From positions 60,001-92,000 of the forward strand of contig DXJG01000004.1 of the NCBI GenBank assembly GCA_019056805.1: a DNA stretch of 32,000 nucleotides, written 5' to 3'. Every line of letters starts with the position of its first letter. Position 1 is the stretch's first letter. Both the position numbers and the translations under genes were made by a program. Below the pieces are notes generated by a model. That model was not told the DNA's origin. It made no database searches and was given only the letters and a program-made list of their open reading frames with translations. Source of the stretch: Candidatus Baldrarchaeota archaeon. GTDB lineage: Archaea > Asgardarchaeota > Baldrarchaeia > Baldrarchaeales > DXJG01. Below are positions 117-29,202 of the stretch, piece after piece.

Positions 117-476
117 ATGGTCTCAGTTAGTGAAATGAAACGGTTGATAGAGTCGGTTGGGGGCTATTGCTTTAAAATTTCTAAGCTTGTACCTATCAAG
201 GACTGGATGCATCAAGAAATTTTCCATTTATTTAAAACAAATATTGAGGAGAAAGTTAACAAGTTAAATTTACTTTTAGATAATCTGACAAAAAAACTAA
301 AAAGAGGGGAGATTGATAGGAAAGTAGCTCTTAAAAACCTCTATGAAATAAAGTTTCGTTTTCAGGGACTATTTTCATGCGCAATATTTCTGAAAAAATG
401 GTTAAAAATAGATGAAACAACCAACCTACAAAAAATTAAGAATAAGATAAGTAAAGTAAAGCAGATATTACAATGA
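117..476 (+). CDS. Hypothetical protein, 119 aa, basic and probably helical
   Basis: ATG-start ORF closely following the upstream stop; no family motif recognised. Confidence 0.55.
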   Translation: MVSVSEMKRLIESVGGYCFKISKLVPIKDWMHQEIFHLFKTNIEEKVNKLNLLLDNLTKKLKRGEIDRKVALKNLYEIKFRFQGLFSCAIFLKKWLKIDETTNLQKIKNKISKVKQILQ

Positions 477-744
477 ATTTTAATTTAGAGACAGTTTATT
501 CAATATGGAATAAATGGTCGTGGAAGTTTAATATCTCAACTATCAAATGCAGCATGTTCTTACACCCTAGTTAGATAAATTTAGTGACAGATACAAATTC
601 TCCTTTTAAAAGTCTAAAAGAAATTATTTCAATAGTTTTCCTTCTAATTCAAAAACTACTGGAGCAATTTTACGCTTTTTTACAAGTTTTAATAAAGGTG
701 TCAATGATAACAAATTTACCATATTTCCGAATTGTCATTCGAGT

Positions 745-761
745 TAAATAAAGTATAAATA
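745..761 (+). promoter_or_regulatory. Putative BRE/TATA promoter of the micro-ORF at 794
   Basis: TATAAATA at 754-761 preceded by purine-rich TAAATAAAG; GGTGA ribosome-binding motif at 784-788. Confidence 0.55.
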
Positions 762-793
762 TATGTGTCATGCTTTTTCTTGTGGTGATGAAA

Positions 794-853
794 ATGGCAA
801 AGAGAAAGGGGAGGAGGAAAAGAAGGAAGAAGAAAAAGGAACCCGGTGAATAA
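794..853 (+). CDS. Micro-ORF encoding a 19-aa very basic peptide, MAKRKGRRKRRKKKKEPGE (below the ORF-track cutoff)
   Basis: Translated by hand; GGTGA 5 nt upstream of ATG 794, TATA box at 754-761, TAA at 851-853, T-rich tract downstream; in-frame alternative ATG at 788. Confidence 0.6.
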   Translation: MAKRKGRRKRRKKKKEPGE

Positions 854-985
854 AAGTCCTAAAAAATGAAAACACAACTTTTGTCGTATTTTTAGTTTAG
901 GTTTTATGAAAAACTATATAAAACGACATTTTAAATTTCTCTGCTATACTGGTAGAAATTTGAGTATCAAAAGATATTATTGATC

Positions 986-1030
986 TTTATATGCTGTATA
1001 TTGTTTTAACAATTCCTATTGGCTAGGTGA
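986..1030 (+). promoter_or_regulatory. Putative TATA box and ribosome-binding site of the hydrolase-GCS2-ATP-grasp operon
   Basis: TTTATATG at 986-993; AGGTGA at 1025-1030, 6 nt before ATG 1037. Confidence 0.45.
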
Positions 1031-1036
1031 AATATT

Positions 1037-1951
1037 ATGGAAGATAACACAGTTTTGTTCTTTGAAGTTTTAAAGCTTTACACCGAACTTGTTGAACTTG
1101 AAAAAAGATTATCCACGGAGAAAAATATGCAACATGAATTAATACAAAATATCATGAGAAGAATTAAACGACTTAATAAGCTAAATAAAGATAATTGGAT
1201 TTTCTTCATCAAAAGTTTACCTTTGGAATTTTTCCTTTCCAGTTCTACAGATTTTACATCAAAAGATAATTTTATGAGATTTGTGAGAATATTTCGTAAA
1301 CATCTAGAGAAAAATATTGCTTACTCTCGATATTCATCAAAACTACATTTAAAAGATGCTATTTTTAAAGAAAACAAACTTCAACTACTTTTCCCCATGG
1401 AAGAGTTCAATCCAGGCTATTTATACAAAGAAGGATGGAAACCTGTTTTAATTACAGTTCCTCACGCAACTCCACCGTTCTCAGATAAAAATGTGGATAA
1501 AATAGCTTTACAAACAGCCAAATTATCTGGAGCACATGTCCTTATTTCAACAATTTCAAGAATATATGTGGACCCCAATAGACCTGAAGCTAGAATTACA
1601 CCGTTTAGAAGGATAATAGAGCGTCTAACATTACGAGAAGGAAAAATAAAAGTTATTTTGGATTTGCATGGCACTTTAAGAAGCGATGAAGAAATTGATG
1701 TTGAGATAGGGGTCTTTAGAAAACTTACTGCCGATGAGGAAATTATAGAGAAGTTGCTTACTCATTTTCAAAAAAGAGGGTTGAAATGTGAACTTGAAGT
1801 GAACAATTTTATTGGTGGCGATATTATTTTGCATCATTCCTTAGTTCCAGATATTCAGGCAATTCAAATTGAATTATATCCTAAAGCAAGAAATATACTA
1901 CGTAGAAATGTGATCGAAGCACTAACTGAATTTATAAAAGATTTTAAATAG
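1037..1951 (+). CDS. N-formylglutamate amidohydrolase / poly-gamma-glutamate hydrolase-like Zn hydrolase with an unknown ~135-aa N-terminal domain
   Basis: C-terminal half carries VLITVPHA, SRIYVDPNR, ILDLHG and IQIE motifs typical of the FGase-like Zn-carboxypeptidase fold. Confidence 0.7.
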   Translation: MEDNTVLFFEVLKLYTELVELEKRLSTEKNMQHELIQNIMRRIKRLNKLNKDNWIFFIKSLPLEFFLSSSTDFTSKDNFMRFVRIFRKHLEKNIAYSRYSSKLHLKDAIFKENKLQLLFPMEEFNPGYLYKEGWKPVLITVPHATPPFSDKNVDKIALQTAKLSGAHVLISTISRIYVDPNRPEARITPFRRIIERLTLREGKIKVILDLHGTLRSDEEIDVEIGVFRKLTADEEIIEKLLTHFQKRGLKCELEVNNFIGGDIILHHSLVPDIQAIQIELYPKARNILRRNVIEALTEFIKDFK

Positions 1952-1958
1952 GTGAAAG

Positions 1959-3428
1959 GTGAGAAATTTGTCAAGAGCGGAAGATTTTGTTTCTAAATAT
2001 GAAATAAAAATCGGGATTGAGGAAGAAGTTTTCATTGTTAACAAAAAAGGCTTTCTTTCACCTTTCTCTGAAGAACTTGTTTCAACCCTGATAAAAATGA
2101 TTGGAGAGGAGAATCAATTACTTGAGAACGCAAGAAGATGGCTTCTTGGACTCCAATGGGAACCTAATCCAAGTCAAATAGAATATGTTACTAGAGCAGT
2201 AAAGTATTGGAAAGTTAAAGATGCCATAAAATTTGGAAGAAAACTTCTTGGACAAGCAGCTAAGAAAATATCTCATAGAATATTTTTAGGTAGTATGCAT
2301 CCTATACAAAGCGATCCTCTCCCAATTAATGGTACACATATTAACATTTCTTTTAAGCCTGTAAATAAAAAGAAAATCTCTAAAGAACTTCTTACATATG
2401 TTTTCAACCACGTTAGAAATCATATACCTGAAATAATTGCTATGACGGCTAATACTCCGCTTATGGGAGGGAAACCTAGTGGTTATGCTAGTTCTAGGTT
2501 GGCGTTTAGCAGAGTTTTGAAACCTTCTAACTTTGCAGTTGTTAAAAGAAAACCTGTGACGGTTATTCCAAGGGAAATGCGTAGCTTTACAAGATACGGA
2601 GTCCTATTTGAGAAGCTTAAAAAATATAAAGCTAGAATAATCACTAATCCTCTCGGAGTAAGATTATTAGATATTACTCCAAGAGGACCTGACACGAACA
2701 TTGTAGAAGATATGAGAACAAGTGTAAGTACGAGTAGAATAGAAATTAGGGTTATTGATAATCAAATAACAGAGGAATATCTTTCAGATATAGTAAAAAT
2801 ACTTTTGGCTCTTTCAGTTGAAGCTATCTTCAAATTTGAGAAAGAAGAAAAGGTAACTGAGAGGAAAAAACTTTTAAGAAACAGAGATAGGGCAATTAAA
2901 AACGGTACTGCTGCTATTTTTATTAATGATGATGGAACCACTATTAATGCAAGGGAATCCATTATTAAACTAATGGAAAGAATATCACCGTTTCTTGACG
3001 CCTTGAATCTCAAGCTTGAAACTAAGCTTGAGTTAGGCATACCTGAAATTGAGGTTTTCGGAAGTCCTGATATCATTGACGAATATGAAGCCCTTTCAGA
3101 ACTAGAAAATAAGGGAAAAATATGTGTTGATGTAAGACTGGAAGGTAAAAGGCTTTGTAAGACTCTTTTTGGAGAAGCAGTTGAAATTGGAGAAATGAAG
3201 AAAGTCTCTGGACTTCTTTTCCCAGAATACCAATGTACATGGACCTACACAGGGAATGGTCTTATAAGAAACTTTAATAAAATAATTGTTAAGCATTGGC
3301 TGGCTACGAAGAATGGATATATTCCGATCTTCAAGAATGATAAAATCGAAAGGTGTAGAAATCCACTAACTCATCTATCAAGCATCTTTAATACTATTGG
3401 AAAACGAGTAATCTATCAATTTGCATAA
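1959..3428 (+). CDS. Glutamate-cysteine ligase family 2 (GCS2/YbdK-like) carboxylate-amine ligase with a C-terminal extension
   Basis: IGIEEE, QIE, MHP, GTHINI, ANTP, SSR and IEIRVID motifs in GCS2 order; GTG start with AGGTGA site, 7 nt after the upstream stop. Confidence 0.85.
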   Translation: MRNLSRAEDFVSKYEIKIGIEEEVFIVNKKGFLSPFSEELVSTLIKMIGEENQLLENARRWLLGLQWEPNPSQIEYVTRAVKYWKVKDAIKFGRKLLGQAAKKISHRIFLGSMHPIQSDPLPINGTHINISFKPVNKKKISKELLTYVFNHVRNHIPEIIAMTANTPLMGGKPSGYASSRLAFSRVLKPSNFAVVKRKPVTVIPREMRSFTRYGVLFEKLKKYKARIITNPLGVRLLDITPRGPDTNIVEDMRTSVSTSRIEIRVIDNQITEEYLSDIVKILLALSVEAIFKFEKEEKVTERKKLLRNRDRAIKNGTAAIFINDDGTTINARESIIKLMERISPFLDALNLKLETKLELGIPEIEVFGSPDIIDEYEALSELENKGKICVDVRLEGKRLCKTLFGEAVEIGEMKKVSGLLFPEYQCTWTYTGNGLIRNFNKIIVKHWLATKNGYIPIFKNDKIERCRNPLTHLSSIFNTIGKRVIYQFA

Positions 3429-3471
3429 AATGTAATCGGGTTAAATTCGCAACTCATAAAGGTGTATAGTC

Positions 3472-4692
3472 TTGAAAACACTAGAAATAAATTTTGACGA
3501 TGTTGAATGGGACAAAGTAGCCATGTACCCATATGCAGGTTTAGATTTCCTCTTAGGTAAGGATGAAAAACTATATTTTATTGAGGCAAACGCCATACCA
3601 ACAGGCATATTTTTTATCGAAACCATCTCAAAATATGTAGAAACCTTTTTGCCACTGAAAATGAAACCATTCATAAAATGTAACAAGGAAATCATCAAAA
3701 ACTTTGTTAAAATGTGTCTCAAATACTGCTATTATAAAAGTGGGAACAAACGGCCTTCAAATGCAGGAATAACTATTCCTGTAGACTGGCCAGGTTTTAC
3801 CTCAACAGAAAGAACACGAATAAAAGCAGCTTTTGAAGAAATAGGAATAAAATGCTACCTTATAAGAAAAAATGATTCCCAAAAAATAGGTTCAACATTG
3901 CATGTGAACATAGAGGGTCAAGATATAGTTCCAGACCTTATTGTAAGAAGAACTTTCAAATTTCCTAAAGATATAGAACAACCTGTCATAAACCCTGTTG
4001 AAACAGGAAAAATCACAGGAAATAAATGGAAGACATATCTTGCAGTTGAGAAGATTTTAAGCAAAAAGAAGGAACTTAAAAACATTTTTACACAACCTTG
4101 GACGAGAATGACGTATAAACCTGAAGAAATTTTAGAATTTTCCTATGATCTCCTTGATGCGGGTAAAGAAGTCGTCATTAAACCTTTAAATAGATTTGGA
4201 GGAAAAGAAATACTCTTTGTTAGGAGTAAAAGAGAGGCGGAAAATAAAATAGAATGTTATCTAAAGAAAAATGGGGATACGGACCCCGAGAGTAACGAGT
4301 CTTTTATAGTTCAAGAGAAGATCGATGTTATGCCTTTTCATGGCAGTGATAAAAAATTTTATGCTTTCGACCTACGAGTATTTGGTTTTCTTGGCAAACT
4401 AGCAGGAGGACAGATAAGGAGAGCTCCTTATCCACTTGATGCTAAAAGAGTTCCACTTGAGAAAAAATTAATTAGTAATATTTCATCTGGAGGAGTATTT
4501 GTTTTCCTTCTGTTTGGAGGAGAAAAGAACTTCACAACTTATTCTATTAAAGAAAAAATCTTTACTTTTCAAACCAGAGAACTAAAACTTGATGGTCACG
4601 TAGCCATAATTGGAGGTGAACTATTAGAAAAACTTAAGATAGCGACCCGAGAAATCATATCAGCAATAAATAAAGCAGCCTTAGCTTCCTAA
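3472..4692 (+). CDS. Circularly permuted RimK-like ATP-grasp ligase
   Basis: DLIVRR, INP..GNKWKT, VVIKP..FGGKEI, FIVQE, DLRVF, R..SNISSGG in canonical order, but the normally C-terminal YAGLD...FIEAN..P segment lies at residues 21-43; TTG start with upstream AGGTG. Confidence 0.85.
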   Translation: MKTLEINFDDVEWDKVAMYPYAGLDFLLGKDEKLYFIEANAIPTGIFFIETISKYVETFLPLKMKPFIKCNKEIIKNFVKMCLKYCYYKSGNKRPSNAGITIPVDWPGFTSTERTRIKAAFEEIGIKCYLIRKNDSQKIGSTLHVNIEGQDIVPDLIVRRTFKFPKDIEQPVINPVETGKITGNKWKTYLAVEKILSKKKELKNIFTQPWTRMTYKPEEILEFSYDLLDAGKEVVIKPLNRFGGKEILFVRSKREAENKIECYLKKNGDTDPESNESFIVQEKIDVMPFHGSDKKFYAFDLRVFGFLGKLAGGQIRRAPYPLDAKRVPLEKKLISNISSGGVFVFLLFGGEKNFTTYSIKEKIFTFQTRELKLDGHVAIIGGELLEKLKIATREIISAINKAALAS

Positions 4693-4716
4693 AATCAAAG
4701 AAAATAAAGTTTTATG

Positions 4717-6402
4717 TTAGATATTTGTGGTTTTTGTCTTTAAGAGGTCTCTTATTGTTATGATTTTTCGTTCTCCTGTTTTCTCATTTTCCAGAATTAT
4801 GGCTCTGTCTGTACATGAGTAGCATGGGTCTATACTTGTAACTATTGTTGGTATATCTGCGACCGTATATCCTTTAAGCATGAAAGGTAGACCTGCATTG
4901 TTTCTATAGCTTGGAGTTCTAATTCTTACAGTATTTGGAATGTGAGGATTCTCCTCTCCACTCTTCACATAGTAGAAAAGTTCTCCTCTTGGAGCTTCTA
5001 CTTTTCCAACAGCTTCCTTATTAGGTTCAGGTTCCTCAATTTCCACCTGTATAGGTCCACCAACTTTTCTTAAAGCTTCAACACACTGAAGACATATTTC
5101 ATAAGCTTGCAATAATTCATAAGTTCTAACCATAAATCTTGCATAGCAGTCTCCGCCGGGGTATGTAACAACATCCCAAGATACCCAGTCCATATCGTAA
5201 GCAGCAAAGGGATCATCTTTCCTAACATCTATCTTAAATTCCGAGCCTCGAGCAGTGGGTCCAACGAGTCCTATATCTCTTGCCTCTTTCCTTGTTACAA
5301 CTCCTACATTTTTCAAACGTTTCTTACAAACTGGATGATCAGCTATCGAGGTAGCTATTTCAAATCCTTCTGGGACGGTTTCTTTAAGTACTTTCTCTAT
5401 TTTGTCAAGCTTTTCATTGTCAACATCGAGTTTTACACCGCCAATGAGAATCATGCCGTGGGTAACTCTGTTCCCCGTAATCAATTCCAAAATATCCATT
5501 ATGTTTTCTCTTAATCTCCACATGTGATGGAATCCTGTTAGGAATCCCATTACATCAGCCCATAGACCTAAAATGAGGAAGTGACTATGTAACCTGTCAA
5601 GTTCTAAAAGTAAGGTTCTGATTAGACGCGCTCTATCTGGTATATCTACTTCTAAGAGATTTTCTATAGTTGTTGCGTAAGCTATTTGGTGGGAAGATGA
5701 GCAAATTCCACAAACCCTCTCAACAAGATATAGATTTCTCCAATAATTTCTTGATTCAGCTAGTTGCATAACTCCACGGTGATTTAGTCCTGGCTTAATA
5801 TCAACATCCAATATAACTTCATCTTTAACTTTACATCTGAAGAATATGTTTTCAACCAACATAGGGTGATACGGGCCTATTGGTATAATCACACCCACCG
5901 AGTCAGCTGGCTTCCTAGGAATAGAAGTTACAATCTCTACTTTGTCTTCTCCTGATTTTTTTACAGCTGATTCTACTTCCTCTGGCCATTCATAAGGTAG
6001 AAATAGATGTCTAGGATCTGGATGACCTACAAATTCTATACCGAGAAGTTCCGCCATCTCCCTCTCTGCCCAAGAAGCCTCATAAGTAACGGTTGATACA
6101 CTGTCAATTTTAGGGTCTTCACGATCCACTATAGCCTTGAAAGTTACATGATATTTCGGCTCTATATGCTCAAAAGAATAGTGATATGCTACTTCGAAAC
6201 CATCTGCCCCAAGATCGCTAACAGTTACATGAACAAGCCTTGCATCCCATTTATCTTTCATATATTTTGCAAGATCAACTACAATTTTCTTATCTATCAA
6301 TATAAAGTGTTTTTTACCTCTGATAACGTAATCTCCAATATATGATGGTCCCAAGAAGCTTTTTATATCCTCTATAACATCTTTAATAGTTACACTCTGC
6401 AT
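4717..6402 (-). CDS. Group 4 [NiFe]-hydrogenase large subunit, NuoC-NuoD fusion (HycE/HyfG-like)
   Basis: N-terminal NuoC-like EREMAELLGIEFVGHPDPR; L1 motif ERVCGICSSSH; L2 motif DPCYSCTDR followed by a C-terminal extension; EAPRGE and RIRTPS; TAATG overlap with hdrB. Confidence 0.92.
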   Translation of the reverse strand: MQSVTIKDVIEDIKSFLGPSYIGDYVIRGKKHFILIDKKIVVDLAKYMKDKWDARLVHVTVSDLGADGFEVAYHYSFEHIEPKYHVTFKAIVDREDPKIDSVSTVTYEASWAEREMAELLGIEFVGHPDPRHLFLPYEWPEEVESAVKKSGEDKVEIVTSIPRKPADSVGVIIPIGPYHPMLVENIFFRCKVKDEVILDVDIKPGLNHRGVMQLAESRNYWRNLYLVERVCGICSSSHQIAYATTIENLLEVDIPDRARLIRTLLLELDRLHSHFLILGLWADVMGFLTGFHHMWRLRENIMDILELITGNRVTHGMILIGGVKLDVDNEKLDKIEKVLKETVPEGFEIATSIADHPVCKKRLKNVGVVTRKEARDIGLVGPTARGSEFKIDVRKDDPFAAYDMDWVSWDVVTYPGGDCYARFMVRTYELLQAYEICLQCVEALRKVGGPIQVEIEEPEPNKEAVGKVEAPRGELFYYVKSGEENPHIPNTVRIRTPSYRNNAGLPFMLKGYTVADIPTIVTSIDPCYSCTDRAIILENEKTGERKIITIRDLLKTKTTNI

Positions 6403-7277
6403 TAGCCAGTCTCCTCCTCTATCTTCTCAACTACACCATCTGCAGGTATTCTATGCAAATATATGCCAAAATCATCAGGATCTATGTCCAAAGCTAAAGC
6501 CAAAAGTTCAAAATAGTTCAAGATCGGAATACTAAAGTTAATGCCTCTGCTTCGAAGATCTAATTGACCTTTTTCTAATCTATCATAACATGCAGGACAG
6601 AAAGTAACAATACAATCTACATTCACTGATTGAACACTTTCCAGCTTTTTCTTGGTTCTTTCCATAAGAGAAAATTCGGCATCAACGTATAATGCTGGGA
6701 CTCCACAACATAAACGAATCAATGGATAGTCAATGATTTGGGCACCCAATGCTTTAACTAATGCTGTAAACTTTTCAACAAGTTTCTTTTCATCATCATG
6801 ATATAGTCTGCATCCAGGTTGCAAAGCTACTCTTAAATTTTTAAGAGGTTTTACAACAGCTTTAGAAATCGTATCTAAACCTATTTCATCGTGCAAAACC
6901 TCTATGGCATGAAGAACTTTTACCGTACCCTTATATTCTTTACCAATTGCTTCTAAATCACGGTTGATTTCATTTTTAAGCTTCTCATCGGCTTTCAAAC
7001 TTTCATTAACCTTATTAAGAGTATCAAAACAACCATTGCAAACAGTCATGATATTTGCATTCAATTTTTCCGCTATTGAAATATTTCTAGCTGCGATGTG
7101 GAGCCACAAATTTTCATCAAATTGTCTACTGATTTCAGGATCCGAGCAACAAGTTGCTCCTTCCATATCAAGTAGTTCTATTCCTAATTTTTCGAACGCT
7201 TTTCTTGTTGCAGCTTCTACATGAAATTGGCTAGCAGGTATGGTGCAACCGAGGAAGAATGCAAACTTTTTCTCCAT
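6402..7277 (-). CDS. hdrB: Heterodisulfide reductase subunit B-like protein (two CCG domains)
   Basis: FFLGC, ATCCS, CNGC, QPGC, LCCG and FCPAC motifs; HdrB-like length and C-terminal PILNYFELLALAL. Confidence 0.85.
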   Translation of the reverse strand: MEKKFAFFLGCTIPASQFHVEAATRKAFEKLGIELLDMEGATCCSDPEISRQFDENLWLHIAARNISIAEKLNANIMTVCNGCFDTLNKVNESLKADEKLKNEINRDLEAIGKEYKGTVKVLHAIEVLHDEIGLDTISKAVVKPLKNLRVALQPGCRLYHDDEKKLVEKFTALVKALGAQIIDYPLIRLCCGVPALYVDAEFSLMERTKKKLESVQSVNVDCIVTFCPACYDRLEKGQLDLRSRGINFSIPILNYFELLALALDIDPDDFGIYLHRIPADGVVEKIEEETG

Positions 7278-7292
7278 GGCTTTTCACCCAGT

Positions 7293-7559
7293 TTAGATTA
7301 ATTTTTTCTTTTTCTCTAAACCAATTTTCTTAGTAAGTTCCTCAAGTTCTTTTACAGCTTCCTTATATTTCCAAGCCGTAGGCGGAACTGGTTCAAGTCC
7401 TATTTCCTCTCTCTCATCAGCTGTAAAATCTGAAAATTGCGGTAAATGAGCACTAGCTAAAAGTGCTTTAATTGCTCCAGCATAAGTTTCTGGGATTTTT
7501 CTTAAAGGTTTACGTAAAGGATAAAGATCTCTATTTTCCTCCAACGACCTCCACCCCAT
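7293..7559 (-). CDS. Stand-alone HdrC C-terminal-like polypeptide with no Cys and no [4Fe-4S] motifs
   Basis: AH.P....EREEIGLEPVPPTAWKYKEAVKELEEL..KIG resembles the methanogen HdrC C-terminus (GHAVP...RKELGL.ELPPTT.K.PEALEEV); lies directly upstream of hdrB; exact start uncertain. Confidence 0.65.
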   Translation of the reverse strand: MGWRSLEENRDLYPLRKPLRKIPETYAGAIKALLASAHLPQFSDFTADEREEIGLEPVPPTAWKYKEAVKELEELTKKIGLEKKKKLI

Positions 7560-8049
7560 ACAATTCTTTCAGTATTTTCCTAGCTTCTTCTCTTGTAACA
7601 AGCTGTAAAGCTCCAGTAGTACAGTACTTTACACATTTCGGATCAATTGTCCCAGTTTCCTTATCGTAGCAAAGGTCACATTTCCATGAAACCTTTGTTT
7701 CAAAATCGAACTGTGGATTTGACAATGGACATGCATAGTTGCAGGATCTACAACCAATACATTTAAGATTATCAATAAATACCCAACCAGTTTCCTTATC
7801 TTTTGTTATTGCATCTACTGGACATGCAGCAGCACAGACAGGTTCTTCGCAATGAGAGCATCTAATGGATTCAAAAACTCCTGGATTATCAGGATCTTCT
7901 ACAACCACGTTACGAGATTTATCATAACTTAGAACACCAAAATGGTGGAAAGAACAAACTATCATACAAACAGTGCATCCAGAACACTTATTCTTGTTAT
8001 GTATAATTACATATGGACCTTTTTCCTTAACAACCTTTAATACACTCAT
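7531..8049 (-). CDS. 4x[4Fe-4S] ferredoxin-like subunit (HycB/CooF/DmsB type)
   Basis: CSGCTVC...C, CSHCEEPVCAAACP, CIGCRSCNYACP, KCDLC...CVKYC; start moved to ATG 8049, which follows GGAGG. Confidence 0.88.
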   Translation of the reverse strand: MSVLKVVKEKGPYVIIHNKNKCSGCTVCMIVCSFHHFGVLSYDKSRNVVVEDPDNPGVFESIRCSHCEEPVCAAACPVDAITKDKETGWVFIDNLKCIGCRSCNYACPLSNPQFDFETKVSWKCDLCYDKETGTIDPKCVKYCTTGALQLVTREEARKILKELYGVEVVGGK

Positions 8050-8060
8050 CTTTTTTCCTC

Positions 8061-8504
8061 CTAATCTTTTGCTAAAGCTTTCTGTATACATTGAGCAATA
8101 CCTACAATTATTGCCTCAGGTTTAGGCGGACAGCCAGGAACATAAACATCCACAGGTATTGCTTTATCAACTGGGCCACCAAAAGTATAGGTAGGATTGT
8201 CATCATCTTTTAGAAAAACTCCTCCAGTCGTTGCACAAGCACCCACAGCGACAACGCCCTTTGGATCTGTCATTTGATTATATACTCTCTTAATAACAGG
8301 CACCATAGCTTTAGGAACTATACCCGTTACAACCATGATATCTGCATATCTCGGGTTATTTGTCAATACGATTCCAATTCTTTCTACATCGTATCTAGGA
8401 GTTAATGCCGCTGCAATTTCTATATCACAGCCATTACAGCCACCACAATGTGCATGAAATATCCATGGACTTCTAGTTCTTGCCCACTTCTTCCAACCCA
8501 ACAC
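8061..8504 (-). CDS. Group 4 hydrogenase small subunit (HycG/NuoB-like)
   Basis: CGGCNGCDIE, PRYADI, GACATTGG and VPGCPP motifs; GTG start after GGAGG. Confidence 0.92.
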   Translation of the reverse strand: MLGWKKWARTRSPWIFHAHCGGCNGCDIEIAAALTPRYDVERIGIVLTNNPRYADIMVVTGIVPKAMVPVIKRVYNQMTDPKGVVAVGACATTGGVFLKDDDNPTYTFGGPVDKAIPVDVYVPGCPPKPEAIIVGIAQCIQKALAKD

Positions 8505-8513
8505 AGATTCCTC

Positions 8514-9095
8514 CTAAACATATTTCCTAGTGTGTAAATTCAATTTTATAGCAAGCTTCTTCCTACAATCTGGACAATAATGTGAAGCAAGCTCTACATC
8601 ATGTAAAATTTGTTCCTTCAAAGCAGAGTCTTCAAGTTTTTCCTTAATTCTATCAATAATCGCCCCAACTTGCTTATCTGGCATAAAATAAGTGCCACAA
8701 TTTTCACATTTTCTTAGATCAATGGTAATAGTAGAAACAACACTATCAACTTTATCGGTTACCAAATTCCAATTTTGAGAAAGCTTAATTGCTTCGTCCT
8801 GCGGGCATATCAATTGACATCTCCCACAGTAAATACACCTACTAAGATATACTGTTAAAACTCTCTTTCCATCCTCATCTACATATTTGATTGCAGAAGC
8901 CGAACACTGCATACTACATGCTACACATCCCATACATTTCTCTTCATCGTACTCAGGTTGTCCTCGAAAGATTGGTGCAACAAAGGCGGGAGGGCCGAAG
9001 GGAAAATCAACTGTTACACATTTTTTAAGTCCAGTTAATGAAACTTTCAAGAGTTTACGTAATGCTCCAACTCTTCTTTCCTTCATTTTGATCAT
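8514..9095 (-). CDS. HycF/NuoI-like 2x[4Fe-4S] subunit with an extra CxxC...CxxC site
   Basis: FRGQP, CMGCVACSMQC, CIYCGRCQLICP, plus CENC and CPDC; ATGA overlap with the NuoH-like gene. Confidence 0.88.
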   Translation of the reverse strand: MIKMKERRVGALRKLLKVSLTGLKKCVTVDFPFGPPAFVAPIFRGQPEYDEEKCMGCVACSMQCSASAIKYVDEDGKRVLTVYLSRCIYCGRCQLICPQDEAIKLSQNWNLVTDKVDSVVSTITIDLRKCENCGTYFMPDKQVGAIIDRIKEKLEDSALKEQILHDVELASHYCPDCRKKLAIKLNLHTRKYV

Positions 9096-10117
9096 CTACC
9101 TATAATTTGTGCAAATGGTATATCAAACCAAGGCATATAAATTAGATAGGCCCAGATTATAGCTAGAATCGAAAACACAAGAGGATACTTAATAAACCAA
9201 GCAAAGGCGTCACTAGGTCTGTATCTCGGCATGAGAACACATATCAACGCCCATATAAAAACTAGAATAAACGTTACCACAATGAAATAAATTATTGTTA
9301 ACCAAGTGAAACTAGTTAATGCTCCTCCTAGCAGGAAGTCTATTATTAACGTAGAAATCAGGAAGAATTTAATGTACCCTTCGATTTTAAACAATCCAAG
9401 AAGTCGTCCACTGTATTCAGCAAGTGGACCGTACACTATCTCATGTTCCGCTTCAACGATATCAAAAGGCTTTACATGCAATTTCCCCAACACTGATAGA
9501 AACAATGCAATTGCAGCAAACGGATTAAGAAACAAAAACCATGCGGGAAGATTTACACCAAAAACATTCAATGTATGTGTCATTTGATAGTTCACTATTT
9601 CCTGTACACTTAAAGTTGCATGCTCGACATGTCCAGCCATCAAAGCAATACTCAGCAAACTCAGTATAAAGGGGACTTCGTACGCTATTAGTAAAAGAAT
9701 TTCTCTCTTACTACCAACAACACCATAAGGAGAACCACTAGAGGCCCCTGCAATCACATAGGCAACTGGAGGACCGTATAAGAGATAAATCAAAAGCAAT
9801 ACGCCAATACTATAGTGTGATAGAGGTGAAAAACCAGCAACCGGAACAAGCCAGATCGCAGCTATAGTACATGCCAGAGCAAAGAATGGTGCAAAATAGA
9901 AGAGTTTTTTCTTTGCAGAAGCTGGTATTTTTGGTTTTTTGCTAAGAAGCTTTAAAACATCAGCAAAAACCTGGTACCATCGCGCGGGAAAATACGGGCC
10001 TCTTCTCATTTGCATTCTAGCATATAGTTTCCTAAACTCGTAGAAGAATAAACAACCTAGTACGAATGCCGCTATAGGTATTAATACAAACTCCAGTATT
10101 GTCCAAATACTCCACAT
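9092..10117 (-). CDS. NuoH/HycD-like membrane subunit of the hydrogenase
   Basis: RKLYARMQMRRGP, ADVLKLLSK, SPYGVVGSKRE, KPFDIVEAEHEIVYGPLAEYSG, PRYR; multiple transmembrane segments. Confidence 0.92.
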   Translation of the reverse strand: MWSIWTILEFVLIPIAAFVLGCLFFYEFRKLYARMQMRRGPYFPARWYQVFADVLKLLSKKPKIPASAKKKLFYFAPFFALACTIAAIWLVPVAGFSPLSHYSIGVLLLIYLLYGPPVAYVIAGASSGSPYGVVGSKREILLLIAYEVPFILSLLSIALMAGHVEHATLSVQEIVNYQMTHTLNVFGVNLPAWFLFLNPFAAIALFLSVLGKLHVKPFDIVEAEHEIVYGPLAEYSGRLLGLFKIEGYIKFFLISTLIIDFLLGGALTSFTWLTIIYFIVVTFILVFIWALICVLMPRYRPSDAFAWFIKYPLVFSILAIIWAYLIYMPWFDIPFAQIIGR

Positions 10118-10163
10118 TTTCTTCCTCTCCTCTCAATGTAGTATATTTTAAGACTACTCACCT

Positions 10164-10481
10164 TTAGTTCTCTTCAGGTTTTTTCCTTGGACTTAACAGT
10201 TCTTCATCACTTATGTAGGGTGGGGCAGCATATCCCCCAGTGAAAATATCTTCTGCACGAACTCTCTTAGGGAATAAAACCGGGATAGCAAGATAAGAAA
10301 CCACTACAACGATCGAGACAATTAAAATTTCAATGAAAATTTCTTCGTACAAGAAGAATTCACCATAATAAAACCTATGTAGGAAAATTCCTAGTAGCCC
10401 GACTATAACCAAAATTGCTGTAACAATAAGGAGAGACTTTCCCAACTCTCTTGACTTAGGATGGGTATCGTTTTTCGTCAT
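10164..10481 (-). CDS. Small two-transmembrane membrane subunit (NuoA/MbhI-like), first gene of the hydrogenase operon
   Basis: Two hydrophobic helices followed by IFTGG, reminiscent of the NuoA/MbhI loop; GGTGA upstream of the ATG. Confidence 0.55.
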   Translation of the reverse strand: MTKNDTHPKSRELGKSLLIVTAILVIVGLLGIFLHRFYYGEFFLYEEIFIEILIVSIVVVVSYLAIPVLFPKRVRAEDIFTGGYAAPPYISDEELLSPRKKPEEN

Positions 10482-10544
10482 CAGAATTTCACCAGCATTT
10501 AGCCCTTAATCTAGTATAACTGTCCTCTATAAGTCAGAAATTCA

Positions 10545-10558
10545 TATATAAATTTTTT
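10545..10558 (-). promoter_or_regulatory. Putative TATA/BRE promoter of the hydrogenase-HdrB operon
   Basis: Minus-strand AAAAAATTTATATA about 65 nt upstream of ATG 10481. Confidence 0.5.
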
Positions 10559-10815
10559 AATCCAAAGAGGTAGCTACACGAAAACTATATTTACTGATTA
10601 ATAGTGTTTTATTGAAGTTTGTAAATCGAAAAGAATGACGAATTTCAATAATATAAACCTACGATATGCAGCAAAAATTTCGTATATCAAGCATAAGAAT
10701 ATGCAAAATGTACTAAATAAATAGCAAGAATGCGCCGCAACCATACCCAAAAAATCCAAAATCGGATTCCGCAAAAAATACGTTTGCAAAATAAATCTTT
10801 AGATCTACTTTCATC

Positions 10816-11322
10816 TTACAAATTTTTTCTTCCATAATTTTCGTAGTAAACAATGTCTTCTAATGCTTTTCTTGACGGAGGTATCGGTATTTTTTCTGGA
10901 TATCCTAATGGTATTACTGTTAGTAAATGAAGACTCTCTGGGACCCCCAATATTTTTTTCGCTTCTTCTCTATCCATTGTTCCTATCCAACACGTTCCAA
11001 GCCCTAACTCCCAAGCTGCAAGCATCAAATTTTGAACCGCGCACGCACCATCAATAAGATGGGCATAGGATTTCTGCGGATCAGTTACAACAGCAATCAC
11101 CACAGGGGCATCAGCTATAAACCAACCATACCTAGCAAGCTTAGCCAACTTACCCTTAGTCTCCTCATCCCTTATAATGATAAACTCCCATGGCTGACTA
11201 TTCTTACTACTCGGAGCCCAGCGTGCAGCATCCAAAACCTTCAACACCAAATCCTTTGGAACATCTTTCTTCAAAAATTTCCTTATTGATCTCCTTTTCT
11301 TAATAACCTCAATAATAGACAT
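10816..11322 (-). CDS. Nitroreductase family FMN-binding protein
   Basis: KKRRSIRKF, ARWAPSSKNSQPWEF, AVQNLMLAAWELGLGTCW, IPLGYP; start moved to ATG 11322. Confidence 0.92.
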   Translation of the reverse strand: MSIIEVIKKRRSIRKFLKKDVPKDLVLKVLDAARWAPSSKNSQPWEFIIIRDEETKGKLAKLARYGWFIADAPVVIAVVTDPQKSYAHLIDGACAVQNLMLAAWELGLGTCWIGTMDREEAKKILGVPESLHLLTVIPLGYPEKIPIPPSRKALEDIVYYENYGRKNL

Positions 11323-11360
11323 GACATATCCCTCAAATACGATTAAATTGCTTAAATGCG

Positions 11361-12362
11361 TCAAATATTTAGGGAAACTAGTTTGTCTTTATACACGAAA
11401 ATAGCTGGTATTCCACCTGTATGAATGAAAATCACATTATCATCTTTTTCAAAGTATCCCTCTTTTATCATACTTATTAGTCCCGTCATAGCCTTCCCTG
11501 TATAAACAGGATCCAGCAATATTCCCTCAGTTTGCGCCACGATCTTAATAGTTTCCTTTATTTCTTGAGTGAGAATTCCATAACCTTCACCAACATAATC
11601 ATATAAGATCTCTACGTCACTTGGACTAAATGAGACATTTAAATCCAGTATTCTAGCACATTCTTTTGCTAAATTGAGTGTAGTTTTTACTAGCTGATGG
11701 TTATCTGGCTCAACACTAATACCTATAACCCTAGTTTTTACATTGAAAGCCTTACTTCCAACTAATAGCCCAGCTTGAGTAGCACCAGAGCCTGCTGCAT
11801 GAACTATATAATCGATTTTAACACCCAAACTTTCAGCTTGATCAATTAACTCTTGGAAAGCATTAACATATCCAACTGCACCTAATGGAGAAGAGGGCGG
11901 TGCATAATATGGATTATATCCTTTTTCCCTGAATTCTTCCATAATATCCTTTAAAATAGATTTCATTTCATGTTGTTTTGCTTGAACAAAACGTATTTCC
12001 GCCCCAAATAACTTGTCTATAAGCAGATTTCCATCATAACTTTGCGGTTTCTCACCACGCAAAACAAGAACAGCCTTAACACCTAATTTTCTTGCAACAA
12101 TTGCTACCGTACGAGCATGATTTGACTGTAGCGATCCTGGTGCAACTATCACATCAGCTCCCTTTTCTAAAGCATCTGCCATAACAAATTCCAATTTACA
12201 CGCCTTATTACCGCCAAAAACCGGTCCCGTTAAGTCATCTCGCTTGATAAACATCCTTGGCCCATTCAAAGCTTTAGAAAGACGGTTCATTTCTTCAAAC
12301 GGGGTCGGTAAATTTGCTAGTTTTACTCTTGGCAAATTATTTATTTTAGCCTTTAAATTCAT
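11361..12362 (-). CDS. dcyD: D-cysteine desulfhydrase-like PLP enzyme (ACC deaminase/DcyD family)
   Basis: KRDD...GGNK, QSNH, LLDPVYTGKA and HTGG; Thr at both positions where ACC deaminases carry Glu and Leu. Confidence 0.8.
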   Translation of the reverse strand: MNLKAKINNLPRVKLANLPTPFEEMNRLSKALNGPRMFIKRDDLTGPVFGGNKACKLEFVMADALEKGADVIVAPGSLQSNHARTVAIVARKLGVKAVLVLRGEKPQSYDGNLLIDKLFGAEIRFVQAKQHEMKSILKDIMEEFREKGYNPYYAPPSSPLGAVGYVNAFQELIDQAESLGVKIDYIVHAAGSGATQAGLLVGSKAFNVKTRVIGISVEPDNHQLVKTTLNLAKECARILDLNVSFSPSDVEILYDYVGEGYGILTQEIKETIKIVAQTEGILLDPVYTGKAMTGLISMIKEGYFEKDDNVIFIHTGGIPAIFVYKDKLVSLNI

Positions 12363-21448: not shown

Positions 21449-22885
21449 CTACTTACGAGAGGCTCTGACATATACTCTTTTGTTTATATCAGTTTTATAA
21501 TCATTATTTAAGCTATCATTTGCATATGCCCTTGCTCTAATCTTTATTTTACCATTTTTCAAAAATACAAGAGGCACAACTAAAACTTTCCGTTCTACAG
21601 GTTTGATTTCTTCGAGAATGTAGTATCCTTGTGACCAATCTTCTAAAAGTCTAATGGAATTTCTAGGTATTGTATCTTTAAATTCAACTTTAACATTTTT
21701 AAGGGGAATATCCTTAGCATGGTTTTCCAAAATAACTCCAATAGAAGTTTTCTCTCCAACAATATATTCTTTATCGACTTCCATTCTCAATTCGAGTACG
21801 TGGTTTTTTACAGCTTCAAAACTTTTGGAAAGAAGCTTTAAAAACTTATTCTTACCACTAAAATTTTGTCTAATTTTTGTTAGTAGTTTGGTGACTGTTT
21901 TGATAGTTAAATTTGTAGATGAGGTTATAAATTCGGAAAATATTTTAGTTGTAGGATCATTAACATTGTTTAAATATTTCTGGGCAATTTCTAAAGCATC
22001 TGTGAGATTCCATGCTATAAGGTTGAACAGTGCAGCTTTAAAAGCCCAAAAAGCATTTTTAGTGCTTAAGTAGATTTTCTGATATAGTTTTGATGCTTCA
22101 GAATATAAATCTCGGTTAAAATCTTCAGCTAAAACATGCTGTAGTAACATTCCACTTTCTTTAAGGTTAAAGTGTTCTTCAAATCTTTTCAAAAAGTTTA
22201 GAAACATGAAAATATTTTTTATTTTTTCCTCTCCGATGTAAGAACTTGTGGATATGCCTGGAAAGTATTCTGGGAAATGTTTACATTTATCGGGGGTTAA
22301 AATTACAGTTAAAACTTTGCTCCAATATTCTCTACTTTCAATGAATTCTGGTAAAAGTAGATGAAATGCTTCAGAGATCAGGAATGTTTCATAAGGTTTT
22401 TCAAGTAAAGAAACATCAAGAAAAACTTTCTCATTATTCCTAATTAAAATTTTACCTAAATTTTTCTTTAAACTGATTACTGGAACCTTTCTTGGTTTGC
22501 AATTACATAAGTATTTCAGTTTTTCTAAGATTTTTAGAAATTCTTTGTGGATTTTAGCTGAAAGTTCTGGTAGTGTTGGTGGCTTTTCAATTTTTTCTTC
22601 AAAGCGTATCAAAAGTTTGGTTTTTCCTTCTAGTAATTTCTTTATTTTTTCGAAGTCTTTAAGGCTGAATGTATCTGCGCCGGAAAGAAAACCTCCTTGG
22701 AGGAAATAGTATATGCGAACGGAGTTCTCAAAATAACTGATAACAATGTATTCTATAGGTCCAATTTTGTAGTATAGCGTTCCTTTCTTTTTAATTCTTA
22801 AAACTTCTACCCTTTTTGCTCTTTTTGCTTCAAATTCTTCTTTTGCAAACTCTCTTAAACTAAGAAATATTTGTCGTTCAGTCAT
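21449..22885 (-). CDS. Hypothetical multidomain protein, 478 aa (helical middle, beta-rich Ig-like C-terminus)
   Basis: Long ORF; ATGA overlap with the upstream gene; fold guess comes from residue pattern only. Confidence 0.7.
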   Translation of the reverse strand: MTERQIFLSLREFAKEEFEAKRAKRVEVLRIKKKGTLYYKIGPIEYIVISYFENSVRIYYFLQGGFLSGADTFSLKDFEKIKKLLEGKTKLLIRFEEKIEKPPTLPELSAKIHKEFLKILEKLKYLCNCKPRKVPVISLKKNLGKILIRNNEKVFLDVSLLEKPYETFLISEAFHLLLPEFIESREYWSKVLTVILTPDKCKHFPEYFPGISTSSYIGEEKIKNIFMFLNFLKRFEEHFNLKESGMLLQHVLAEDFNRDLYSEASKLYQKIYLSTKNAFWAFKAALFNLIAWNLTDALEIAQKYLNNVNDPTTKIFSEFITSSTNLTIKTVTKLLTKIRQNFSGKNKFLKLLSKSFEAVKNHVLELRMEVDKEYIVGEKTSIGVILENHAKDIPLKNVKVEFKDTIPRNSIRLLEDWSQGYYILEEIKPVERKVLVVPLVFLKNGKIKIRARAYANDSLNNDYKTDINKRVYVRASRK

Positions 22886-23610
22886 AGGGAGGTTCCCTTT
22901 ATCTTTTTGTAAGCTTCAAAAGCTGCATTATAAGTTTCATGCATTTCCTCTTCACTTGTAACCCCAACAGCTACACTGTCCACGTATTTATACACAAATT
23001 CAAAAGCTTCTAAAGGTTTAATTTTACCAGCAGCTAAAGGCTTAATAGCAATTACTGTACGACTACAAGATTTAATAGCTTCCAGAGACTCGTTAAAGTC
23101 TGGATCCATAGCGTAGCCAATTTTGTTAAGGGGAGCTAAAACCACCTCTACGGGAACGTTTTCGTTTTCAACCCATTTTAAAGTTATACCTGGTTGATGC
23201 GTAGCTAAACCTGGAGTGATTCCAAAATCTTCTAAAATTTTAACATTTTTACTCACAACGTCTAGATTTCTTCTATCAGCAATTTCGGCATGAATAGCTA
23301 CAACTTCAGGTTCTAAAGGTTCTAATGTCTTTATTCTAGCTATTAATCTATCATCGGTGAAATCTGTACTATAAACTACAAAAGGTTTAACATTGCTTCG
23401 CTTAGAAGCTTCAATCAAGGCTTTTATAGTTTTATCAGCAAGTAATTGAACAGCTTTAACACCGAATTCAAAACTTTTAATGAAAAGCCTAACCATGTTT
23501 TCAGGCTGCATATAAAACGTCATATAATACTTGAACGCTCTTACACCAAATTGTCCAGCCCCAATAAAAGGACTTGTACCCATCAAAAGTCGAGGCACTT
23601 TAACACTCAT
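22882..23610 (-). CDS. Aldo/keto-reductase-like TIM-barrel protein
   Basis: PRLLMGTSPF, GLATH, LAPLN..G, IAIKPLAAG, VAVG pattern; start taken at ATG 23610. Confidence 0.55.
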   Translation of the reverse strand: MSVKVPRLLMGTSPFIGAGQFGVRAFKYYMTFYMQPENMVRLFIKSFEFGVKAVQLLADKTIKALIEASKRSNVKPFVVYSTDFTDDRLIARIKTLEPLEPEVVAIHAEIADRRNLDVVSKNVKILEDFGITPGLATHQPGITLKWVENENVPVEVVLAPLNKIGYAMDPDFNESLEAIKSCSRTVIAIKPLAAGKIKPLEAFEFVYKYVDSVAVGVTSEEEMHETYNAAFEAYKKIKGTSL

Positions 23611-23752
23611 ACCCAATCCCCAAAATACATAGAATTCCACATCTTAAAAGTTTGTTGAAAGAAAACTAAGTTCATAAAATAATTTTAGCAAGGAAATACT
23701 AAGAATGCGATTCTAAGGACTCTAAAAAGAAGTTGGAAAGGAATTAAATGTT

Positions 23753-24454
23753 TTACAGCTTTTTCTTTACAACCGCCACTGCTATGATTATTATAATAGC
23801 AGCAATTGTGCCACCTGTTACTGGTATGAACCATTCGCTGATTCCTAGATGTACATCTGTGCTTTTAATCTTTATTTCTAGCTCGTAGCCCATGTATTTG
23901 CTATATCCTTCAAGTAAAACTCCTGAAGCTTTATCATACACTAGGTAAAATTTGTTACCATCAGCTGTTTCATTGCCAAATATTATAACATGTCTTGGAA
24001 GACCTAGATAGAAGGCTGCAGAATTCTCTTTAATTAATTGTACATTGTTTTCTCTAGCTGCCTCAGTAATATTGTCCCACACGGGTTGGACCACTAAACT
24101 TAAGCTGAAGGGCCAGAAACCTATTGCAAGGTTAAAGCCGATTATAGATAAATCGACATTTTCGGCTGTTAAATTACCAATTATAATATCCGCGTAAGCC
24201 TTTGTCTCCGTGATATTTGTGAAAGTTAATGCTATAGTGTCTCTAGCTGAAATATTAACTTTAACAAGTCCTGTACCTGGGTCCCACCACCATAGAAGAT
24301 CTTCCATGCATTTTACAACTTCCCACTCTACCGTTTGACCTACTTCTACACGCCAACTTGATGCTGCAGCTACGCTATAAAATGCAGTGTAGGTTAGAAT
24401 AAGGGCGGAAAATGCAAATAGTAACGTTATTTTCATATACTTCCCAATTTTCAT
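23753..24454 (-). CDS. Secreted, C-terminally membrane-anchored surface protein
   Basis: N-terminal signal-like hydrophobic stretch; C-terminal transmembrane helix plus KKKL; start at ATG 24454 after GGAGGT. Confidence 0.75.
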   Translation of the reverse strand: MKIGKYMKITLLFAFSALILTYTAFYSVAAASSWRVEVGQTVEWEVVKCMEDLLWWWDPGTGLVKVNISARDTIALTFTNITETKAYADIIIGNLTAENVDLSIIGFNLAIGFWPFSLSLVVQPVWDNITEAARENNVQLIKENSAAFYLGLPRHVIIFGNETADGNKFYLVYDKASGVLLEGYSKYMGYELEIKIKSTDVHLGISEWFIPVTGGTIAAIIIIIAVAVVKKKL

Positions 24455-24494
24455 TTTTCTACCTCCAATTTCCATTTTAAAGTGTTAAATTTAT

Positions 24495-24956
24495 TTAGTA
24501 GGAGAGTAGTTTTGTTATGTTTGAGAATTGTGAGGGCCAATATTTCCATTCAACAATATCATCGCTGTTTAGATAGTATTTGTTTGCTGCTACCATTGGA
24601 AGTTCTCCATTAACCCAGTACTGCCACCACATATTGTTATTATTCTCGTTGTTTCTAACGCCATTTATGGCGTCGATAAAGACATAGGGACCTTCATAAT
24701 GATATTCTACGCTAGCTACTAGCAATAAGGCATGTAAAACTGTTGTATTAGGTGGATCTAAGTTAATTCCCGTAAATTTTTGAGTACTTCCATTTCCGTA
24801 ATCGATTATAATTGTAATGTTATAAGCTGGCTTGATTTCATGTTGAGGATTTTCTATTGGAGAGTATTCTGGTGCCAAATACATCAATATTGTAAGAGCT
24901 GACACGTAGACAATTACCATGAGGAGAAGTAGGGTTATGGTGAGTTTTCTTTCCAT
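24495..24956 (-). CDS. Membrane-anchored DUF4430 (transcobalamin C-terminal-like) protein
   Basis: N-terminal transmembrane helix; TVLHAL, FIDAING, WWQYWVNGE, GAANKYYL-like segment (VAANKYYL) and DIVEWKY. Confidence 0.82.
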   Translation of the reverse strand: MERKLTITLLLLMVIVYVSALTILMYLAPEYSPIENPQHEIKPAYNITIIIDYGNGSTQKFTGINLDPPNTTVLHALLLVASVEYHYEGPYVFIDAINGVRNNENNNNMWWQYWVNGELPMVAANKYYLNSDDIVEWKYWPSQFSNITKLLSY

Positions 24957-25528: not shown

Positions 25529-25543
25529 GCCCTCACCCAAACA

Positions 25544-29200: not shown

Positions 29201-29202
29201 CT

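Follow-up and report, generated by a model that had tools for sequence, protein, structure and literature searches.

The stretch of DNA considered here (the window; 32,000 nucleotides, corresponding to C11:60001-92000 of a Candidatus Baldrarchaeota genome of 1.92 Mb in 18 contigs that is 91% complete) carries on its minus strand, from position 10481 to 4717, an operon of eight tightly packed genes, recognized from the listing of open reading frames (ORFs) and their translations, that encodes the core of a group 4 [NiFe]-hydrogenase together with HdrB, a subunit of heterodisulfide reductase (Hdr), and no antiporter-like subunit. By gene content and large-subunit phylogeny the operon belongs to the Ehd/Ehe/Drh family; it has lost the antiporter-like subunit, and all eight of its genes are under purifying selection. 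Its product is probably an eight-subunit complex of the Drh type in a non-methanogenic Asgard archaeon, likely to couple H2 oxidation reversibly to disulfide reduction without antiporter-driven pumping. Ehd, Ehe, Drh, and Ehg are modular HdrB-interacting group 4 hydrogenases, and Drh, the “disulfide-reducing hydrogenase” of Methanocellales (Lyu & Lu 2015, as cited in PMC6046458 and PMC9723716), is without an antiporter subunit (PMC9723716); Ehd-like complexes have been noted in further Thermoproteota (PMC12700198).

Composition and conservation of the operon

Pfam assigns six of the eight operon ORFs, leaving proteins of 105 and 88 aa without a match (Table 1). The fused NuoC-NuoD large subunit contains the motifs RVCGICSSSH and DPCYSCTDR, which supply the Ni-binding cysteines C231, C234, C527, and C530, and these four columns are invariant in the alignment of the large-subunit family. 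After the second motif the protein continues for 28 residues to its C terminus, an extension that is a substrate for HycI-type processing, and the maturation genes found in the genome include one match for HycI (PF01750) and two for HypD (PF01924). The best solved relative of the large subunit is Escherichia coli HycE (7z0s_E, E 1.3e-81), and the genes for the NuoB-like, NuoI-like, and NuoH-like subunits are adjacent, as in group 4 [NiFe]-hydrogenases.

A pair of CCG domains (CXnCCXnCXXC) provides ten cysteines for two non-cubane [4Fe-4S] clusters, and the HdrB of the operon aligns with solved methanogen HdrB (8rvu_b and 5odc_B; E ~4e-64, with 3.7e-64 for 8rvu_b) over residues 4-288 with all ten of these cysteines in register. 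In solved Hdr structures, HdrC is composed of an N-terminal 2x[4Fe-4S] ferredoxin domain and a C-terminal segment that touches HdrB. The ferredoxin domain is absent from the 88-aa protein, which has no Cys motifs and corresponds to the C-terminal part only: a search with the single sequence matches HdrC residues 123-171 (E 0.005), the family profile matches residues 122-184 of the 185 in solved HdrC (E 5e-15), and one related locus encodes a full-length HdrC that is likewise a match for the 88-aa family. The protein is identified as a free-standing HdrC C-terminal segment because of the profile match. The Fe-S role of HdrC has presumably been taken over by the separate HycB-like Fer4_11 protein, which has four Cys motifs and whose matches among solved structures include HycB and FdnH-type subunits. 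The true start of this ferredoxin is probably M15, at 8049, which would give a protein of 172 aa, the length of the orthologue in locus L058.

The putative promoter element lies ~65-75 nt upstream of the first operon ATG (10481), which is immediately preceded by GGTGA. Stop/start overlaps join the NuoH-like and HycF/NuoI-like genes (ATGA, 9092-9095) and hdrB and the large-subunit gene (TAATG, 6402), and the promoter-, GGTGA-, and terminator-like signals together with the gene spacing are consistent with a single transcription unit. The original prediction had listed a promoter and these genes for 4717-10481, noted the two overlaps, credited the large subunit with all four Ni-ligating cysteines, and called the 88-aa protein an HdrC fragment; Pfam, the translations, the HdrC profile match, and direct reading bear it out on each of these points. 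A second Baldrarchaeota lineage has the eight genes in the same order, with amino-acid identities of 75-96%, and the operon is therefore not an assembly artefact. Between the two lineages, the ratio of nonsynonymous to synonymous substitution (dN/dS) is 0.02-0.11 for all eight genes (NuoH-like subunit, 0.055; the small subunit with two transmembrane (TM) helices, 0.08; HdrC tail, 0.11). The NuoH-like subunit keeps 35 of the 39 family-invariant positions, and none of the four changes affects a charged residue; with these values, relaxed selection on the membrane subunits after loss of the pump is unsupported. The purifying selection on all of the genes indicates that the operon, with its eight subunits and no antiporter, is a stable functional design and is not decaying.

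Table 1. Features of the hydrogenase operon, in the direction of transcription (positions in the window)
Feature	Positions	Strand	Basis and remarks
Putative archaeal BRE (B recognition element)/TATA element, AAAAAATTTATATATG	10545..10560	-	Read from sequence; inside the 334-nt gap between the upstream nitroreductase gene and the operon
Small 2-TM membrane subunit (tm), 105 aa	10164..10481	-	Translation; two hydrophobic helices; no Pfam match
NuoH/HycD-like integral membrane subunit (H), 341 aa	9092..10117	-	PF00146 (NADHdh), E 5.5e-65
HycF/NuoI-like 2x[4Fe-4S] subunit (F), 193 aa	8514..9095	-	Fer4 families; extra C-terminal CxxC...CxxC
HycG/NuoB-like small subunit (G), 147 aa	8061..8504	-	PF01058 (Oxidored_q6), E 4.8e-32; GTG start; Cys motifs in translation
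HycB-like four-cluster ferredoxin (Fd4), Fer4_11, 186 aa as ORF	7531..8091	-	PF13247, E 1.4e-22
Free-standing HdrC C-terminal segment (tail), 88 aa	7293..7559	-	No Pfam match, no Fe-S motifs; 29-nt overlap with ferredoxin gene
HdrB, 291 aa	6402..7277	-	PF02754 twice (two CCG domains), ten cluster-binding Cys
Fused NuoC-NuoD [NiFe]-hydrogenase large subunit (Large), 561 aa	4717..6402	-	Complex1_30kDa + NiFeSe_Hases + Complex1_49kDa
T-rich tract, putative archaeal terminator	4690..4716	-	After the last stop; 24 nt to the end of the convergent gene

Relatives of the operon and loss of the antiporter-like subunit

The proteins of the window were compared with the ORFs of 89 related loci. The genes for the four-cluster ferredoxin, HdrC tail, and HdrB are found as a triplet in one operon in the window and likewise in at least 24 related loci, in combination with several arrangements of the other genes (Table 2). 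The nearest homologue of the large subunit, with 82% identity, is from Candidatus Baldrarchaeota and has an identical gene order with the same nitroreductase gene before the operon; among 301 genomes of the same phylum, the window-type operon is present in only one congener. In a quick tree of 89 NuoD-type domains, the window sequence is inside a 28-row HdrB-linked clade (support of 98 in the Shimodaira-Hasegawa-like approximate likelihood ratio test, SH-aLRT) whose other members come from Odinarchaeia, Bathyarchaeia, Culexarchaeia (Culexmicrobium; Ehe), Methanomethylicia (Ehd), and Methanomicrobia, among them Methanocellaceae (Drh). The comparison with the Ehd cluster of Methanomethylicia, which had been proposed for this operon, is thus apt on the evidence of both large-subunit phylogeny and synteny. 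A profile hidden Markov model of the tm family detects the window copy at 3.9e-34, all 24 of the 24 HdrB-linked clade loci, and one marginal locus outside; by this criterion, which was derived in the present analysis, the Ehd/Ehe/Drh clade has the 2-TM protein as a signature subunit.

Table 2. Gene order in HdrB-linked group 4 hydrogenase operons (subunits as in Table 1; ANTI, antiporter-like subunit)
Lineage	Gene order	Remarks
Odinarchaeia	Fd4-tail-HdrB-tm-ANTI-Large-H-F-G	
Another Asgard family (f20)	Odinarchaeia gene set	ANTI and tm swapped
Methanomethylicia (Ehd)	tm-ANTI-Fd4-tail-HdrB-Large-H-F-G	
Methanomicrobiales	Fd4-tail-HdrB-tm-Large-H-F-G-ANTI	
Methanocellaceae (Drh)	Fd4-tail-HdrB-tm-Large-H-F-G	No ANTI
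Baldrarchaeota (window)	tm-H-F-G-Fd4-tail-HdrB-Large	No ANTI

Group 4 hydrogenases usually have at least one antiporter-like (NuoL/M/N) subunit, and this feature is missing from the operon. Pfam detects no antiporter-like (PF00361) gene in the operon or the window, and tblastn with 15 antiporter queries (E<=1) gave no credible remnant in the window, in its Baldrarchaeota relatives, in Drh, or in L081, a locus in a metagenome-assembled genome of Candidatus Methanomethyliaceae from SPRUCE peat; the claim that the operon is without an antiporter gene is upheld by both searches. Methanocellaceae locus L075 contains genes for Fd4, tail, HdrB, tm (ORF 8649-8921), Large, H, F, and G, with no antiporter gene within 9 kb. 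In L081, an Ehd-type operon at 6660-12000 (tm-Fd4-tail-HdrB-Large-H-F-G) has neither an antiporter gene nor a remnant of one in the 9 kb that flank it on each side and looks like a third independent loss. The tm protein of L081 has an extra C-terminal hydrophobic stretch. The converse variant, in which the pump is kept and HdrB is lost, is found in L019 (Bathyarchaeia; large subunit 52% identical), where positions 468-7164 encode a four-cluster ferredoxin, an 86-aa ORF, tm, an antiporter, and the hydrogenase core but no HdrB.

In a mixture-model tree of 34 rows, the three Baldrarchaeota sequences group together (100/100) on a long stem, and Methanocellaceae pairs with Methanoregula (99/99) inside an antiporter-bearing Methanomicrobia clade. 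Approximately unbiased (AU) tests, with groups chosen after inspection of the tree, reject a grouping of the Baldrarchaeota sequences with Methanocellaceae (p 4e-8) and with L081/L074, the antiporter-less Methanomethyliaceae from peat (p 8e-5). Common ancestry with Drh, or with the second lineage that has no antiporter, is rejected by these tests, and it follows from them that the pump was lost in the Baldrarchaeota lineage independently of Methanocella Drh. From the trees and gene contents, the antiporter-like subunit, which nearly all relatives of the operon possess, appears to have been lost at least three times in the family: in Baldrarchaeia, in Methanocellaceae, and in a peat lineage of Methanomethyliaceae.

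Proposed electron transfer, direction, and substrate

The route of the electrons, the direction of catalysis, the substrate, and the lack of pumping are inferred, and the route is modeled by analogy with the solved structures of Hdr and of the formate hydrogenlyase (FHL) complex. Electrons would be transferred between the [NiFe] site in the NuoCD large subunit and the two non-cubane clusters of HdrB by way of the HycG cluster, the two HycF clusters, and the four clusters of the HycB-like ferredoxin, with HdrB clamped by the free-standing HdrC C-terminal segment and reducing or oxidizing a disulfide/dithiol couple. The membrane part would consist of only the NuoH-like subunit and the 2-TM, probably NuoK-like, subunit, and the complex, having no antiporter-like subunit, is most likely non-pumping or weakly coupled, with ions at most passing through the NuoH/NuoK-like part.

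With respect to direction, the published models for Ehd and Drh are of the uptake type, from H2 to heterodisulfide (PMC9723716, PMC6046458). It is conceivable, although unlikely, that the complex is mainly an H2-evolving redox vent in which electrons from reduced ferredoxin at the HycB-like subunit, or from a dithiol at HdrB, pass to the [NiFe] site and to protons and in this way dispose of the electrons of fermentation. The characterized group 4 enzymes (FHL, Mbh, and Ech) mostly evolve H2, HycE of FHL is the solved protein nearest to the large subunit, the HycB-like subunit is a generic electron-input module, and fermentative production of H2 is predicted for Asgard archaea that have group 3/4 hydrogenases (Liu et al. 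2020). The sequence fixes no direction, however, and for typical disulfide couples the oxidation of thiols to H2 is endergonic unless H2 is very low; standard potentials suggest that a low-potential dithiol of the dihydrolipoyl type would make H2 evolution feasible at low H2. The preferred reading is an H2:disulfide oxidoreductase in which H2 oxidation is coupled reversibly to disulfide reduction.

The host of the window is a non-methanogen in which the disulfide cannot be assumed to be that of coenzyme M (CoM) and coenzyme B (CoB). A search of the 91%-complete genome for mcr and for genes of CoM synthesis detected no McrA (PF02249) and no ComA (PF02679), and DsrC was likewise not found; a Methanosarcina control also gave no PF02679 signal and other CoM pathways exist, so that the ComA result leaves CoM possible. 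Because no Mcr and no ComA were found, CoM-S-S-CoB is unlikely as the substrate. GcvH was proposed as the disulfide carrier for Ehe in the Culexarchaeia paper (PMC9723716). In the present genome, C11:206235-209974 encodes a methanogen-type HdrB, which is the closest paralogue of the operon HdrB (39% identity), and an HdrA/MvhD fusion beside a gene of the GcvH/LbpA family at C11:209624-209974, and a second GcvH-family gene is located at C6:89601-89966. A lipoyl carrier of the GcvH/LbpA type, as a protein-bound or low-potential dithiol, is a candidate substrate. HdrA/MvhD fusions occur beside HdrB paralogues in this genome.

The alignment of the tm family shows that a Glu in TM2 (E51) is invariant and that the motif FP..K....IF.GG...PPY is conserved. 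PF00420 (NuoK/ND4L) matches 4 of 12 family members (best E 2.5e-4), NuoK chains head the list of matches in the PDB, below significance, and an hhalign comparison with the single NuoK of the genome is not significant (probability 0.8%, E 0.07); the 2-TM subunit is probably NuoK/ND4L-like. For a complex of the NuoH-like subunit with tm, structure prediction gave a median score of 0.52 versus 0.05 for the best control, with contact agreement between runs of at least 86% and a partner pLDDT (predicted local distance difference test) of at least 61. The score mark is passed by 58 of 80 solved complexes and by 2 of 110 mismatched pairs, and passing scores of 0.60 or less belong to only 7 of the 80 solved complexes and to both of the passing mismatches; these benchmark counts hold only roughly, as the prediction used purpose-made alignments. 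The prediction gives weak support to contact between the two subunits. The tail and tm proteins of Baldrarchaeota are without the C-terminal extensions present in Ehd.

The genome has three PF00361 genes by Pfam and tblastn, all at one separate locus on contig C17 (C17:127700-140100; L020:5720-18063) with divergent operons for NuoJKLMN on one strand and NuoABCDHI on the other. As the D subunit encoded there keeps both NiFe motifs (RICGICSAAH and DPCFACMDR), the locus is identified as a second group 4 hydrogenase, complex-I-like and of 11 subunits. A gene for A-type ATPase subunit C directly follows nuoN at this locus, and the genome also has a third, group-3-like hydrogenase. An orphan antiporter or Mrp module elsewhere in the 91%-complete genome is rejected, as PF00361 is confined to the 11-subunit locus. 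These findings bear on the possibility that the complex of the window is still an ion pump, either by recruiting a NuoLMN-type antiporter from C17 or one encoded in the unassembled 9% of the genome, or by means of its NuoH-like and NuoK-like subunits alone. The retention of 35 of 39 invariant residues and strong purifying selection in the NuoH-like subunit, the invariant membrane Glu of the 2-TM subunit, as in NuoK, and the 91% completeness of the genome all speak for such a pump. However, the three antiporter-like genes are part of a self-sufficient locus with its own NuoH, J, and K, the second Baldrarchaeota lineage has no antiporter gene in a flank of 8-10 kb, and in relatives the antiporter gene is always within the operon. 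Pumping without an antiporter-like subunit is not known from any complex-I-type enzyme. A pumping complex is accordingly quite improbable, and the suggestion in the original prediction that a pump encoded elsewhere may be borrowed fares poorly, as the only antiporter-like genes of the genome belong to a complete second hydrogenase and the search for a separate antiporter module returned this self-sufficient locus alone.

CCG domains are found in several non-Hdr enzymes, and the genome encodes ~10 CCG proteins of varied architecture, including, at 28037-30627 (-) of the window, an HdrD-like protein (Fer4_8 and two CCG domains, 387 aa) directly after an FAD_binding_4/FAD-oxidase_C protein (474 aa), but it is highly improbable that the HdrB-like subunit is not a disulfide reductase and acts on a substrate such as an organic acid or a membrane-soluble acceptor, in the manner of SdhE/TfrB-type enzymes, GlcF, or LutA, given its full-length match to HdrB of CoB-CoM heterodisulfide reductase with ten aligned cysteines, the HdrC segment that partners HdrB encoded alongside, and the methanogen orthologues in operons of the same type. 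The pair at 28037-30627 is of the GlcD/GlcF or D-lactate dehydrogenase type, and a gene for an MtrH-family methyltransferase is located at 31177-31851.

Several points weigh against the interpretation of the operon as a pump-less, Drh-type H2:disulfide oxidoreductase. The single transcription unit is deduced from gene spacing only, the 34-row tree leaves the deep placement of the Baldrarchaeota clade within the family unsettled, and the post hoc choice of groups qualifies the AU tests of independent loss. At 91% completeness, an antiporter gene may lie in the unassembled part of the genome. The NuoK-like character of the 2-TM subunit depends on sub-threshold matches, the window's own copy being one that PF00420 misses, and the weak backing of the predicted contact with the NuoH-like subunit has been described above. 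Finally, the sequence specifies neither the catalytic direction nor what HdrB acts on, and the qualification on ComA applies to the argument against CoM-S-S-CoB.

Comparison with known enzymes, neighboring genes, and implications

Drh of Methanocellaceae has the same eight subunits, no antiporter, and a large subunit in the same clade. The two are nevertheless not orthologous by descent, since Methanocellaceae Drh nests among Methanomicrobia homologues that keep the antiporter; the window also differs in placing tm-H-F-G first and in a large-subunit identity of only ~39-40%, and its host is not a methanogen. Ehd of Methanomethylicia (Methanosuratincola) and Ehe of Culexarchaeia share with the window the module of Fd4, HdrC tail, and HdrB, the NuoCD large subunit (44-47% identity), the NuoH/I/B-like subunits, and the 2-TM subunit, but both carry in the operon a PF00361 subunit of ~500-520 aa (517 aa in Methanosuratincola) that the window is without, and Ehe has SdhA, CdhA, and GcvH as additional neighbors. 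No usable literature was found on Ehd in cultured Methanosuratincola. The E. coli FHL-1 complex (HycBCDEFG-FdhF; 7z0s) has the closest solved large subunit, including the NuoC fusion and the C-terminal extension, together with the HycB-, HycD-, HycF-, and HycG-like subunits; in the window, there is no FdhF or HycC in or next to the operon, HdrB and the HdrC tail replace the formate dehydrogenase partner, and the 2-TM subunit has no counterpart among the listed HycBCDEFG-FdhF subunits.

Among Asgard archaea, the preprint of Appler et al. 2024 (10.1101/2024.07.04.601786), in its section on these enzymes, reports that Baldrarchaeia, Odinarchaeia, Hermodarchaeia, and Asgardarchaeia encode Mbh-like group 4l/4q hydrogenases with a peripheral heterodisulfide reductase domain, and the window operon is almost certainly one of these. 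The homologues in Odinarchaeia and Hermodarchaeia keep the antiporter, and that section of the preprint is silent on a loss in Baldrarchaeia. The architecture that had been read from the window, an FHL-like group 4 core tethered to the membrane, with HdrB as partner and no antiporter-like subunit, is right, but the novelty that the original prediction implied for it is not, because Methanocella Drh, equally without an antiporter, is made up of the same eight subunits (PMC9723716, PMC6046458) and Hdr-linked group 4 hydrogenases had already been reported for Baldrarchaeia (10.1101/2024.07.04.601786). The enzyme class, its presence in Baldrarchaeia, and an antiporter-free form are therefore already described. 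What is new is a version in Baldrarchaeia without the antiporter that Asgard relatives keep, its loss independently of Drh, the unique gene order, the reduction of “HdrC” to a tail, and the 2-TM subunit as a signature of the clade.

Upstream of the operon, at a distance of 334 nt, 10816-12362 (-) contains a gene for a PALP protein (pyridoxal phosphate-dependent, with a cysteine synthase-like fold) that overlaps a nitroreductase-family gene by 4 nt. The nitroreductase gene is kept upstream of the operon in the other Baldrarchaeota lineage, and a nitroreductase of 28% identity is encoded ~3.5 kb downstream of Ehd in Methanosuratincola (L018, L079). The convergent genes at 1037-4692 (+) encode an FGase-like amidohydrolase, a GCS2-type carboxylate-amine (Glu-Cys-type) ligase, and a YheCD-like ATP-grasp ligase, all with weak Pfam scores, a set that could make a small peptide or thiol. 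A link between these genes and the operon through thiol synthesis was set aside because they are convergent, score weakly, and are not kept beside the operon in the relative with the 82% identical large subunit. At 21449-25540 (-) there are five co-oriented ORFs (478, 252, 240, 153, and 201 aa) with a single Pfam match, DUF4430.

The HdrB-linked group 4 hydrogenases connect the disulfide chemistry of methanogens to membrane enzymes of the complex I type, and finding them in Asgard archaea that are not methanogens prompts one to ask which disulfide they serve there. The practical value of the present operon is modest, since the class is known and cultured Methanocella is already an experimental system; its interest is as a second, independently derived pump-less version beside Methanocella Drh. 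In syntrophic coculture, Methanocella conradii upregulates its Drh (PMC6046458), which by our reading may reflect low H2. A low-potential disulfide or low ambient H2 leaves little energy to conserve, and this would rationalize the repeated loss of the pump. A more speculative and rather doubtful proposal is that the losses represent an adaptive switch from pumping to a near-equilibrium enzyme with a low H2 threshold, in which the NuoH-like and NuoK-like subunits, with the invariant membrane Glu, form a minimal “E-channel-only” module that may move one ion per turnover. If this were true, one could examine directly in this complex whether ions are translocated by the NuoH/NuoK region of complex I alone.

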